Shown: piece by piece, positions 4,238 through 62,250 of the stretch | Layout: each line of letters starts with the position of its first letter | Numbering within the stretch: the first letter of the stretch is position 1 | Assembly (NCBI RefSeq): GCF_017348835.2 | Contig: NZ_CP071375.1 | DNA length: 64,000 bases | Strand: one strand, 5' to 3' | Source: Escherichia coli | GTDB taxonomy: Bacteria; Pseudomonadota; Gammaproteobacteria; Enterobacterales; Enterobacteriaceae | The notes under the pieces: generated by a model | Databases searched by the model: none | Told to the model about the DNA's origin: nothing | Seen by the model: the letters and a program-made list of their open reading frames with translations, nothing else | Made by a program: the position numbers and the translations under genes

Positions 4238-5719
4238 TCAGTTACGGAAAGGGTTATGACCGTTACTGGTGGTAGTGCGTGCGGATGTTTGCTGAACGAC
4301 GGGGGCCGGGCTATCAGGCGCATAACCATCAGCAATAGCATTCTGTTCCGGCGTTTGCGGGGCAACGTTTTCCGGATTAGTGGAAACCGGTTTGCTCAGC
4401 GCATTGTTCAGTGCCAGCAGATCCTGCTCGTTCAACGTACCCAGGGCTGACTTAATATTCAGCTGATTAATCAGGTAGTTATAACGCGCATTCGCCAGCT
4501 CTTGCTTGGCGTTGTACAGCGTGGTGGTCGCATCCAACACATCAACAATGGTACGCGTACCGACCGAGTAGCCCGCTTCCATCGCGTCTAATGAGCTTTG
4601 AGCGGAAACTACGGCTTGTTTGTAGGCGTTAATACTACTGATAGAAGCATTAATGTTGTTGAAGGAGGAACGTACGGTTTGCACGACGCTACGATGTGCG
4701 CTTTCCAGTTGCTCGCTGGCACCAACAAAGTTGTACTGTGCCTGTTTCACCTGCGAGTTAACCATTCCGCCCTGATAAATCGGCAGCGAGAAGCTCAGGC
4801 CAACTTTGTTCTGGCCCATATTGCTATCGTCATACTGGGTACCAGCGGCACCACGGGTTTTCGAACCGCTATAAGAGGTGTCAGAAATCCCGGTAGAAGC
4901 CGTTAAATCCAGAGTCGGTAAGTGACCATCCTGCGCTTGGCGAATTTGCTCGCGGGCCAGGTCCTGGCTCAAGCGTGCCTGTAACAGCGACAGGTTGCGT
5001 TTTTCGGCTTCTTTCAGCAGCGCGTTAACCGGCTGTGGTTTGTCGGTTTTAAAGTTTTCGACATTCAGCGCCGCCAGTTCCGGATAGTAGTTACCGGTGA
5101 TCTGGCGCAGCTGCTCTACCGCGTTATCAAGGTTATTACGTGCGGTCACTTCGTTCGCCAGCACGGTATCGTACTGCGCGCGGGCGTTCTGCACGTCGGT
5201 GATCGCTACCAGGCCCACGTTAAAACGTTGGGTGGTTTGATCTAATTGACGGTAGATCGCTTCTTTTTGTGCCTGTGTATAGGAAAGAACGTCAATAGCA
5301 TTCAACACGTTGAAATAAGCGGTCGCGGTGTTGAGGATCAAGGTTTGCTGATCGGTCTGATATGTGACGTCCTGAATCCCTGCTGCTTTTTCCTGCAGCG
5401 TTAACGCACGCCATTTCGACATATCAAAAATGGATTGAGTTAACTGCAGGGACGCACTGGCCGCGTTAGAGTTGATGCCGTTCGCGTCGCGGTAGCCGTT
5501 GCTATAGGTGTAATCTGCACCTAAACCTAGCTGTGGCAGTAATGGACTGCGCGCTTCATTAATTTTTTCAAAGGCAGCATCACGATCGGCGGCAGACTTA
5601 CGCAATTCCGGGTTACTAAGGCGTGCTTGCTGATAAACTTGCATCAGGTTCTCGGCCTGGCTCAACGAACTGAACCCAGAAAGGCTCAGGCCGATAAGAA
5701 TGGGGAGCAATTTCTTCAT
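4238..5719 (-). CDS. tolC: Outer membrane channel TolC
   Basis: 493 aa from MKKLLPILIGLSLSGFSSLSQA (signal peptide) followed by ENLMQVYQQARLSNPELRKSAADRDAAFEKINEARSPLLPQLGLGADYTYSNGYRDANG; ORF-track start is a 13-codon upstream extension. Confidence 0.93.
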   Translation of the reverse strand: MKKLLPILIGLSLSGFSSLSQAENLMQVYQQARLSNPELRKSAADRDAAFEKINEARSPLLPQLGLGADYTYSNGYRDANGINSNAASASLQLTQSIFDMSKWRALTLQEKAAGIQDVTYQTDQQTLILNTATAYFNVLNAIDVLSYTQAQKEAIYRQLDQTTQRFNVGLVAITDVQNARAQYDTVLANEVTARNNLDNAVEQLRQITGNYYPELAALNVENFKTDKPQPVNALLKEAEKRNLSLLQARLSQDLAREQIRQAQDGHLPTLDLTASTGISDTSYSGSKTRGAAGTQYDDSNMGQNKVGLSFSLPIYQGGMVNSQVKQAQYNFVGASEQLESAHRSVVQTVRSSFNNINASISSINAYKQAVVSAQSSLDAMEAGYSVGTRTIVDVLDATTTLYNAKQELANARYNYLINQLNIKSALGTLNEQDLLALNNALSKPVSTNPENVAPQTPEQNAIADGYAPDSPAPVVQQTSARTTTSNGHNPFRN

Positions 5720-32953: not shown

Positions 32954-33057
32954 ACGTTCCTCCTTTATATGAACTCACCGGAGCAGGCTCCGGTGAGGTG
33001 TTGTGAACTTAAGTCTGGACGAAATGCCCGAAAACGAAAGTTTGAGGCGTAAAAAGC

Positions 33058-38332: not shown

Positions 38333-38758
38333 ATGGCAATGCATCTTAACGAAAACCTCGACGATAACGGCGAAATGCATGATATCAACGTGACGCCGTT
38401 TATCGACGTGATGTTGGTTCTGCTGATTATCTTTATGGTGGCGGCACCGTTAGCGACGGTAGATGTGAAGGTGAACTTGCCTGCTTCTACCAGCACGCCG
38501 CAGCCACGCCCGGAAAAACCGGTTTATCTGTCGGTGAAGGCAGACAACTCGATGTTTATCGGTAACGATCCGGTCACCGATGAAACAATGATTACGGCGT
38601 TGAATGCGTTAACCGAAGGCAAGAAAGACACCACCATCTTCTTCCGAGCGGATAAAACCGTCGATTACGAGACGTTGATGAAGGTAATGGATACGCTGCA
38701 TCAGGCGGGTTACCTGAAGATAGGTCTGGTCGGCGAAGAAACCGCCAAAGCGAAGTAA
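38333..38758 (+). CDS. exbD: TonB-system protein ExbD
   Basis: 141 aa, single TM then periplasmic domain. Confidence 0.92.
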   Translation: MAMHLNENLDDNGEMHDINVTPFIDVMLVLLIIFMVAAPLATVDVKVNLPASTSTPQPRPEKPVYLSVKADNSMFIGNDPVTDETMITALNALTEGKKDTTIFFRADKTVDYETLMKVMDTLHQAGYLKIGLVGEETAKAK

Positions 38759-38765
38759 AGTAGAA

Positions 38766-38980
38766 TTGCCTGATGCGCTACGCTCATCAAGCCTACAAAA
38801 TCTATTGCAACATGTTGAATCTTCGTGCGTTTGTAGGCCGGATAAGGCGTTCACGCCGCATCCGGCATTAGGTGCTCAATGCCTGATGCGCTACGCTTAT
38901 CAGGCCTACAAAATCTATTGCAACATGTTGAATCTTCATGCGTTTGTAGGCGGATAAGGCGTTTTCGCCACATCAGGTAA
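38766..38980. repeat. Tandem pair of REP/BIME-type extragenic palindromic units (two ~110-bp near-identical copies)
   Basis: gcctgatgcgctacgct[c/t]atca[a/g]gcctacaaaatctattgcaacatgttgaatcttc... occurs twice in tandem with few substitutions. Confidence 0.8.
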
Positions 38981-38997
38981 GAGTGAATTCACAATGA

Positions 38998-39031
38998 TGC
39001 CCGGTTGCTTTTCACAACCGGGCATTTTTTT
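38998..39031. terminator. Hairpin terminator adjacent to yghA stop
   Basis: gcccggttg...caaccgggc stem followed by TTTTTTT. Confidence 0.55.
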
Positions 39032-39914
39032 AACCTAAATGCTCGCCGCCGCACACGCCGTGCACTTCTGCGGTGACGTAGCTCGACTCCTGACTTGCCA
39101 GATAAACATATACAGGGGCCAGTTCCGCCGGTTGCCCCGCACGCTTCATCGGCGTTTTCTGACCAAACTGCGGGATCTTATCCTGCGTTTGTCCGCCGGA
39201 AATTTGTAGTGCCGTCCAGATAGGGCCTGGCGCGACAATATTCACCCGAATACCTTTCTCCGCGACCTGTTTTGCCAGGCCACGGCTGTAGTTCAGAATC
39301 GCCGCCTTCGTAGCCGCATAGTCCAGTAAATGCGGACTTGGCTGGTATGCCTGGATTGACGAAGTGGTGATGATACTTGCACCTTTCGGTAGCAGGGGGA
39401 TCGCTTCCTGGGTTAGCCAGAACAGCGCGAAAACGTTAATGGCAAAGGTCTTTTGAAACTGTTCGCTGGTGAGGTCTGCAATATCCGGAATGGCAACCTG
39501 TTTCCCGGCGACCAGCGCCATAATATCCAGCCCACCTAAGGCCTTATGCGCTTCGTGAACCAGCGAACGGGCAAATTTCTCATCGCTTAAATCGCCTGGC
39601 AGCAGAACGGCTTTGCGTCCGCATTCTTCAATGATCTTTTTCACATCCTGAGCGTCTTCTTCTTCCACGGGAAGATAACTGATCGCCACGTCAGCCCCTT
39701 CACGCGCGTAAGCGATGGCGGCAGCGCGACCGATTCCGGAATCGCCCCCTGTCACCAGGGCTTTACGATCTTTCAGGCGACCGCTACCAACATAGGTTTT
39801 CTCGCCGCAATCTGGTACCGGTGTCATCTTCGCCTGGATGCCTGGCGTCGGTTGTTTCTGTTTGGGATATTCACCAGTGTAATACTGCGTGGTCGGGTCT
39901 TTTAAATGAGACAT
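39030..39914 (-). CDS. yghA: Short-chain dehydrogenase/reductase YghA
   Basis: 294 aa [13 protein letters not shown] cofactor motif. Confidence 0.9.
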
Positions 39915-61389: not shown

Positions 61390-61424
61390 GCCGGATGCGG
61401 CGTGAACGCCTTATCCGGCCTACG
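61390..61424. repeat. REP element in yqjH-yqjI intergenic region
   Basis: gccggatgcggcgtgaacgccttatccggcctac. Confidence 0.7.
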
Positions 61425-62152: not shown

Positions 62153-62250
62153 GATTGCCGGATGCGGCGTACCCTACACACCCCGTAGGCCTGATAAGAT
62201 GCGCCAGCATCGCATCAGGCATTGTGCTCCAACCGCCGGATCCGGCATAC
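62153..62250. repeat. REP cluster between yqjI and aer
   Basis: gccggatgcggcgtaccc...taggcctgataagatgcgccagcatcgcatcaggc...ccgccggatccggcat. Confidence 0.75.

Follow-up and report, generated by a model that had tools for sequence, protein, structure and literature searches.

Two similar REP-containing units follow one another head-to-tail between the convergent genes exbD and yghA in the window (i.e., the whole 64,000-nt stretch of E. coli DNA analyzed here), which raises the question of whether this array is a recent, strain-level novelty or a long-established element, and what role it may play at the junction of two genes. REPs and BIMEs have been under study as a class since the 1980s. A preliminary description, made from the sequence alone, had seen here a recently duplicated REP/BIME unit, ordinary for E. 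coli, that could act in recombination or RNA stability. We conclude, with a probability of roughly 0.88, that the array is the catalogued E. coli element REP222, a bacterial interspersed mosaic element (BIME) of two tandem BIME-1-type units that is old at this site and dispensable, whose hairpins would slow transcript decay and which serves as a substrate for recombination and as a target of IS621.

Structure and folding of the array

Self-comparison of the region returned a direct repeat (38767-38838 vs 38880-38951, 72 nt, 96% identity, spacing 113) and a second block (38839-38865 vs 38951-38977, 27 nt, 85%) in which the spacing falls to 112 owing to a 1-nt deletion; a MAFFT alignment of both units gave the same picture and placed the deletion in the second copy. 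The best ungapped self-match scored 63 at offset 113, whereas 60 dinucleotide-preserving shuffles reached 9.2 +/- 1.1 (maximum 12), and the window contains a 20-mer of the spacer exactly twice (0.01 expected). Tandem Repeats Finder reported no array in the region, probably because the array amounts to ~1.9 copies, i.e., fewer than two full ones. REP loops vary in length: a fixed-gap pattern gave no match, and the REPs were located with a regular expression. Read from the sequence, two Y-linker-Z units follow one another across a 13-nt linker (Table 1); in the generic unit, the Y-type REP is TGCCTGATGCGCTACGCTYATCARGCCTAC, the tail-to-tail linker (36 nt) is AAAATCTATTGCAACATGTTGAATCTTCRTGCGTTT and the Z-type REP, which is inverted, reads GTAGGCCGGATAAGGCGTTCACGCCGCATCCGGCA. 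The self-alignment, the shuffles and the opposed REPs around an AT-containing spacer bear out the two head-to-tail units of the preliminary description, whose limits (38766-38980) proved accurate within 2 nt, and the ORF list and the RefSeq annotation of matching genomes agree with it on the names exbD and yghA and on the convergence of the two genes.

Table 1 Features between exbD and yghA, in window coordinates
Feature	Position	Strand	Basis or remark
exbD coding sequence	38333-38758	+	ORF list; RefSeq annotation of identical or 99% identical genomes; TAA 38756-38758
Segment missing from the 0-unit allele	38760-38992		233 bp (TAAA/AATGATG); allele comparison
Unit 1	38767-38879		~113 bp
Unit 1 Y-type REP, TGCCTGATGCGCTACGCTCATCAAGCCTAC	38767-38796	+	Sequence, repeat comparison, folding
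Unit 1 tail-to-tail linker, L-type, AAAATCTATTGCAACATGTTGAATCTTCGTGCGTTT	38797-38832	+	36 nt; comparison with K-12 yaaX-yaaA BIME linker
Unit 1 IHF-like core, ATTCAACATGTTG	38820-38808	-	Sequence
Unit 1 Z-type REP, canonical, GCCGGATGCGGCGTGAACGCCTTATCCGGCCTAC on - strand	38833-38866	-	Pattern search, folding
Rfam naRNA4 (RF02564) match: unit 1 Z, linker, unit 2 Y	38836-38906	+	68.1 bits
Head-to-head inter-unit linker, ATTAGGTGCTCAA	38867-38879	+	13 nt; locus-specific
Unit 2	38880-38978		Head-to-tail copy of unit 1
Unit 2 Y-type REP, canonical short-loop form, TGCCTGATGCGCTACGCTTATCAGGCCTAC	38880-38909	+	Pattern search
IS621 natural target in unit 2 Y, ATCAGGCCTAC	38899-38909		
Unit 2 L-type linker	38910-38945	+	35/36 identical to unit 1 linker; alignment
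Unit 2 IHF-like core	38933-38921	-	Sequence
Unit 2 Z-type REP, degenerate	38946-38977	-	Alignment, folding
Intrinsic terminator, exbD orientation	38996-39033	+	12-pair hairpin and T-run; terminator prediction
yghA coding sequence, convergent with exbD	39030-39914	-	ORF list; RefSeq annotation

The four REPs are in unequal states. Of the four palindromes, three fold into hairpins (unit 1 Y, -8.7; unit 1 Z, -20.9; unit 2 Y, -13.2 kcal/mol), and CTAC or GTAG stands at the foot of all four. The unit 1 Y is weaker than that of unit 2 because of an A at 38790, where seven of seven other alleles inspected carry G. The internal Z matches the consensus perfectly, its 30-nt palindromic core recurring identically in the window at 49925-49954 and within 61390-61423, and the unit 2 Y is identical to a published REP query, GCCTGATGCGCTACGCTTATCAGGCCTAC (Durrant 2024). 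The terminal Z, with a 1-nt deletion in GGCCGG and five substitutions, has lost its REP hairpin (z -1.5).

Folding of the exbD 3' region, a check put forward in the preliminary description, found both strands of 38740-39040 far more stable than shuffles (plus strand, -113.5 kcal/mol, z -6.8; minus strand, -115.8 kcal/mol, z -7.4). The minimum-energy fold is one nested hairpin in which Y1 pairs with Z2, linker with linker (via the palindrome CAACATGTTG that lies inside the unit 1 linker) and Z1 with Y2, while the terminator hairpin forms separately; alternative local folds comprise single REP hairpins, unit hairpins (-37 kcal/mol) and a Z1/Y2 hairpin (-43 kcal/mol).

Three open reading frames that run over the element (plus strand 38766-38957, 63 codons; minus strand 38609-38854, 81 codons; minus strand 38851-38973, 40 codons) were rejected as protein-coding, since what they translate is REP palindromes; RefSeq places no CDS there in K-12 or in the other strains inspected, and ORFs across these palindromes are almost certainly spurious. 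Gene callers can thus yield false ORFs over REPs, the 63-codon frame being an example. The K-12 locus tags pass from b3003 (yghA) to b3005 (exbD), b3004 being absent.

The window holds other elements of this and other kinds: a BIME at 49876-49954 with a long-loop Y and a Z placed head-to-head across an 11-nt linker (Rfam naRNA4, 90.5 bits), single REPs at 61390-61423 (Z) and 62185-62220 (Y) and, above their Rfam gathering scores, an ALIL pseudoknot (55342-55458, 120 bits) and an ES173 sRNA (32992-33055, 99 bits).

Identity and classification of the element

The identity of the element is already known. Under EcoCyc names, Murashko 2023 (PMC10100675) lists REP222, with five REPs, for exbB, exbD and yghA, and writes it as 'REP222a-d / REPv222e' for exbBD and 'REPt222a-e' for yghA; being catalogued, the array is indeed as ordinary for E. 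coli as the preliminary description supposed.

It belongs to the REP/BIME family of non-autonomous palindromic repeats, in which a REP is an imperfect palindrome of 30-40 nt with a conserved GTAG/CTAC at its foot, lying outside genes and numerous in each genome; the palindromes described above answer to this, the fourth being degenerate. In both units a plus-strand Y and a minus-strand Z lie 36 nt apart, which is the arrangement of a BIME. As the linker reference we used the K-12 element of Y, linker and Z between yaaX and yaaA (NC_000913.3, about 5565-5669), which we take to be annotated as RIP1/BIME-1 in GenBank. The linker is identical to this reference at 23 of the right-hand 27 nt, and the core ATTCAA-N4-TTG is present in both linkers and in the reference, the sole changes in the core (TATA to CATG) falling inside the unspecified N4. 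Judged by this L linker, the units are of BIME-1 type.

By published definitions (Ton-Hoang 2012, Chiapello 2005), BIME-1 pairs a single y with a single z1 REP across an L linker that is long, conserved and often endowed with an IHF site, and occurs in single copies; BIME-2 combines y and z2 REPs, spaced by short S linkers, into tandem arrays of up to twelve REPs; and an 'atypical BIME' is any other combination of Y, Z1, Z2, L, S and related motifs, found in multiple copies whose number differs between strains. The comparison with yaaX-yaaA finds the long conserved L linker of BIME-1, but the units stand two in tandem rather than singly, and for this reason the array is formally an atypical BIME, a class that also accommodates L linkers in a two-copy array and the existence of 0-, 1- and 2-unit alleles. 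BIME-2 does not describe it, as the tail-to-tail linkers are of the 36-nt L type and not short.

Copy number among E. coli genomes

The comparison of copy number among strains that the preliminary description had proposed was run on 5,426 complete E. coli genomes, a sample biased to clinical and laboratory strains in which counts are of genomes and not of independent lineages, and it returned alleles of 0, 1 or 2 units. A 641-bp query (element and flanks) has a median of 33 matches per genome. A 45-nt linker probe was found in 3,765 genomes, at no more than two places in each and never on plasmids, and all matches checked lay at the exbD-yghA locus. The places found by this 45-mer undercount units, since one changed base in unit 1 is enough to interrupt the megablast word (three of four inspected '1-place' genomes carry two units, with a single-base change in the unit 1 linker), and units were therefore counted with a 35-nt unit 1/unit 2 junction, the inter-unit linker being the marker for alleles of two or more units. 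This junction is present in 3,670 of the 5,426 genomes (67.6%), and K-12, BL21, DH1, DH10B and O157:H7 all have the two-unit allele. A 50-nt 'empty site' junction was found in 1,574 genomes (29.0%), leaving, by subtraction, 87 with neither the linker probe nor the empty site. One of the 3,670 genomes matches the junction 35-mer at two places, perhaps because its array has three units or because a local segment was duplicated.

The empty allele reads TAA-AAAT-GATGCCCGG, i.e., exactly the 233 bp of Table 1 are gone and the terminator is kept; no direct repeat was found at the ends of the deletion (positions 499-503 of the extracted empty locus). One-unit alleles account for at most about 95 genomes, and those inspected (HeN100, SL124) are exact chimeras that combine the left-hand variants of unit 1 with the degenerate Z of unit 2, which points to recombination between the two direct repeats. 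Of the two roles suggested in the preliminary description, recombination is thus supported by these chimeric alleles, and RNA stability by the published work on the REP222-bearing yghA mRNA discussed below. At the DNA level, homologous recombination between the units would collapse two into one, and the array is also a target of IS621.

An insertion of this kind is seen in E. coli E7476 (NZ_CP035817.1), where IS621 (IS110 family, bridge-RNA recombinase) lies inside the second Y REP (extracted locus 1225-2510) with the junctions ...TTATCAGGCCT^[TGTATT...CAGTATCT]^ACAAAATC, equivalent to 38899-38909 of the window. The insertion point in unit 2 is ATCAGGCCT^AC, and the target, with its CT core, is the published natural one. 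In at least 12 further genomes the 68-nt locus-specific IS621 junction is matched at 100%; matches down to the 80% coverage threshold also include IS621 copies that sit in other Y REPs. In unit 1 of the window, the A at 38790 also destroys the IS621 target motif (ATCAAGCCTAC). Together, the 0-, 1- and 2-unit and the IS621-interrupted forms make up a clean natural allelic series in which the effect of a BIME on two convergent mRNAs could be tested.

Age of the two units

The claim that the duplication is recent, with very few substitutions, does not stand. The two-unit allele is carried by ~68% of the genomes, laboratory and pathogenic strains among them (K-12, BL21, O157:H7), and the units differ from each other at 9 of 101 aligned Y-linker-Z columns (8 substitutions and 1 indel), an overall identity of ~91%. 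The differences are also unevenly spread, with 3 of 72 in the Y-plus-linker part (2 of 72 in K-12-type alleles) and 6 of 29 in the Z part (Fisher p between about 0.03 and 0.004), and they are the same in all six of the two-unit alleles inspected. A single recent duplication of the whole unit does not explain this pattern; it could instead stem from gene conversion acting on the Y-linker segment, from an ectopic conversion event in the internal Z or from a module of Z, linker and Y that was inserted long ago. E. coli, a divergent lineage and E. albertii share damage to the terminal Z at one and the same GGC^CGG position, and the decay of this REP therefore looks old.

Other species were represented by the ExbD relatives listed, a sample outside which E. 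fergusonii and the named cryptic-clade species fall. E. albertii, 90.7% identical over the region, carries one heavily mutated unit at the same site between homologous flanks (AGCATAATT... and ...AGAGTTAAACGTACGATGATGCCCGG). SCPM-O-B-8794, labelled E. coli and 93.2% identical, has two units with a similar linker between them, ATTCGGTGCTTAA; the tail-to-tail linkers of this genome are short and differ from one another, its second Y is of the long-loop type, and its divergence suggests a cryptic Escherichia lineage. Among the matches listed, no REP was found after exbD in those Citrobacter, Enterobacter, Kluyvera and more distant loci that were examined. From this distribution we infer that the element probably predates E. 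coli and that the empty allele would be a secondary loss. In E. albertii NBRC 107761, yghA-like sequence becomes unalignable ~30 nt past the shared terminator (extracted locus about 2090-2330), and in this species yghA seems to have been truncated or replaced.

A recent, strain-level tandem duplication of a single BIME unit, as originally proposed, would fit the 96-97% identity of the two Y-plus-linker parts and the restriction of the linker variant to this locus, at most twice per genome, which does identify the two Y-linker segments as local copies of one another. It is at odds with the presence of the two-unit allele in 3,670 genomes, with unit-specific differences that stay constant in the six alleles inspected and are concentrated in the Z parts, with the two units and similar inter-unit linker of a 93%-identical Escherichia lineage and with a 35-nt junction common to two-unit alleles, which speaks against independent duplications. 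We regard this reading as largely refuted and give it almost no credence. High identity between tandem REP units is no evidence of recency.

Transcription and mRNA decay

Given the position of the element between the exbD stop codon and a terminator that adjoins the stop codon of yghA, both convergent mRNAs most likely include it at their 3' ends. The terminator overlaps the yghA stop codon and is kept in the 0-, 1- and 2-unit alleles as well as in the E. albertii and divergent-lineage loci; from its position, the exbBD mRNA would carry both units as its 3' UTR and end at 39026-39033. We propose that the stable hairpins would slow 3'-to-5' exonucleolytic decay of both convergent transcripts, an effect that has been published for yghA in K-12 and that we presume for exbBD.

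The idea of an effect on RNA stability has already been examined at this locus, on the yghA strand, by Murashko 2023 (PMC10100675). The exbB, exbD and yghA transcripts all rise under NaF, the data for exbBD being limited to this rise in abundance. For yghA, Northern blots resolved a full-length RNA of ~1,000 nt and an intermediate of ~300 nt, and with a probe to the REP region their half-lives were 2.8 and 6.2 min, respectively, both lengthening to more than 16 min with NaF. Both species were stabilized by NaF/ATP depletion, by inactivation of RNase E and by deletion of the degradosome scaffold (PMC10100675). The measurements behind the stabilizer role thus come from the yghA mRNA of K-12 stressed anaerobically with NaF, apparently with no REP-deletion control. 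Whatever function the element has must be dispensable, as ~29% of the genomes lack it.

Alternative readings

This dispensability is also the starting point of a reading that we rate as somewhat less likely than not, namely that the array is a selfish or neutral REP/BIME insertion, decaying and persisting by drift, whose copy number changes by unequal recombination, possibly through the REP-associated transposase TnpA-REP. The ~29% of genomes without the element have an otherwise unchanged locus, the terminal Z is degenerate and the E. albertii copy is heavily mutated; in the literature, BIME-1 loci are variably present among isolates, the copy number of BIMEs at a locus varies among strains, and TnpA-REP cleaves and recombines BIMEs in vitro (Ton-Hoang 2012). 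Plain decay sits less easily with the good preservation of the three other REPs and of both linkers in the E. coli alleles inspected, and with the altered decay of the REP-containing yghA RNA species (PMC10100675). A site acting through DNA architecture is unlikely: IHF at the two L linkers, together with cruciform-prone REPs, could form a RIP- or RIB-type element, e.g., a supercoiling barrier between convergent units. Its position at the 3' ends of two transcription units would suit such a barrier, and both linkers keep the ATTCAA-N4-TTG core of the reference BIME-1, but this IHF-like core departs at one position from the IHF consensus, WATCAANNNNTTR. Though the BIME-1 L linker has been reported to carry and bind an IHF site (Ton-Hoang 2012), 29% of genomes do without any such architectural element. 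It seems quite unlikely, too, that the array down-regulates ExbD translation, with a REP hairpin just past the stop codon stalling the terminating ribosome and leading to mRNA cleavage and trans-translation. According to a paper citing Liang 2015, REPs within 15 nt downstream of a stop codon stall ribosomes, and the first Y stem, starting at 38768, lies 9 nt past the end of the exbD stop codon (38758), i.e., inside that distance as relayed there; in the window, however, the A at 38790 weakens this very hairpin, and in the 0-unit allele the terminator hairpin comes within only 4 nt of the stop codon, so that the element may add nothing to stalling.

The remaining readings are weaker. It is a long shot that gene conversion keeps the Y-plus-linker segments near-identical while the terminal Z decays, thereby preserving a ~100-bp inter-unit hairpin in both convergent mRNAs; if it did, the 0- vs 2-unit polymorphism would entail heritably different stability of the exbBD (TonB energizer) and yghA mRNAs, and possibly a sense/antisense coupling of the two transcripts. 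That the array is a gene for a naRNA4-like, nucleoid-associated small RNA working with HU we consider very improbable. The Rfam naRNA4 match does pass the gathering score of 59.5 (Table 1), but the model describes any succession of Z hairpin, linker and Y hairpin, matches the reverse strand here as well and scores more strongly on the BIME at 49879-49955, and we set membership aside as a generic two-hairpin BIME match. No promoter-like site was found adjoining the element. In the literature, naRNA4 derives from REP325, a six-repeat Y/Z2 cluster, and its function (HU binding, nucleoid condensation) is described for REP325 only.

Comparison with known systems

The reading of the array as REP222 rests on its place and sequence: the K-12 element occupies the same locus in an intergenic region of equally 271 bp, and the window differs from it at two positions within the element. 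K-12 lacks the A at 38790 in the first Y. EcoCyc counts five REPs in REP222 (a-d and the variant e), whereas our analysis of the window distinguishes only four REP palindromes. With BIME-1, each REP222 unit shares the layout of Y, long linker and inverted Z as well as the IHF-like core, and REP222 also matches the presence/absence polymorphism reported for that class; BIME-1 is single-copy, however, while REP222 joins two units through a 13-nt head-to-head linker. Tandem Y and Z REPs in alternating orientation are common to REP222 and to BIME-2, REP325 and naRNA4, but BIME-2 has short S linkers and up to twelve REPs, in contrast to the long L linkers and two units seen here. REP stabilizers (of the malE-malF type; osmC and yghA in Murashko 2023) likewise lie downstream of a stop codon and form stable hairpins, and they leave a decay intermediate that contains the REP and depends on the degradosome for its turnover, as the yghA mRNA with REP222 does. 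What sets REP222 apart from them is that one element serves two convergent mRNAs and that, on the exbD strand, an ordinary intrinsic terminator follows beyond it.
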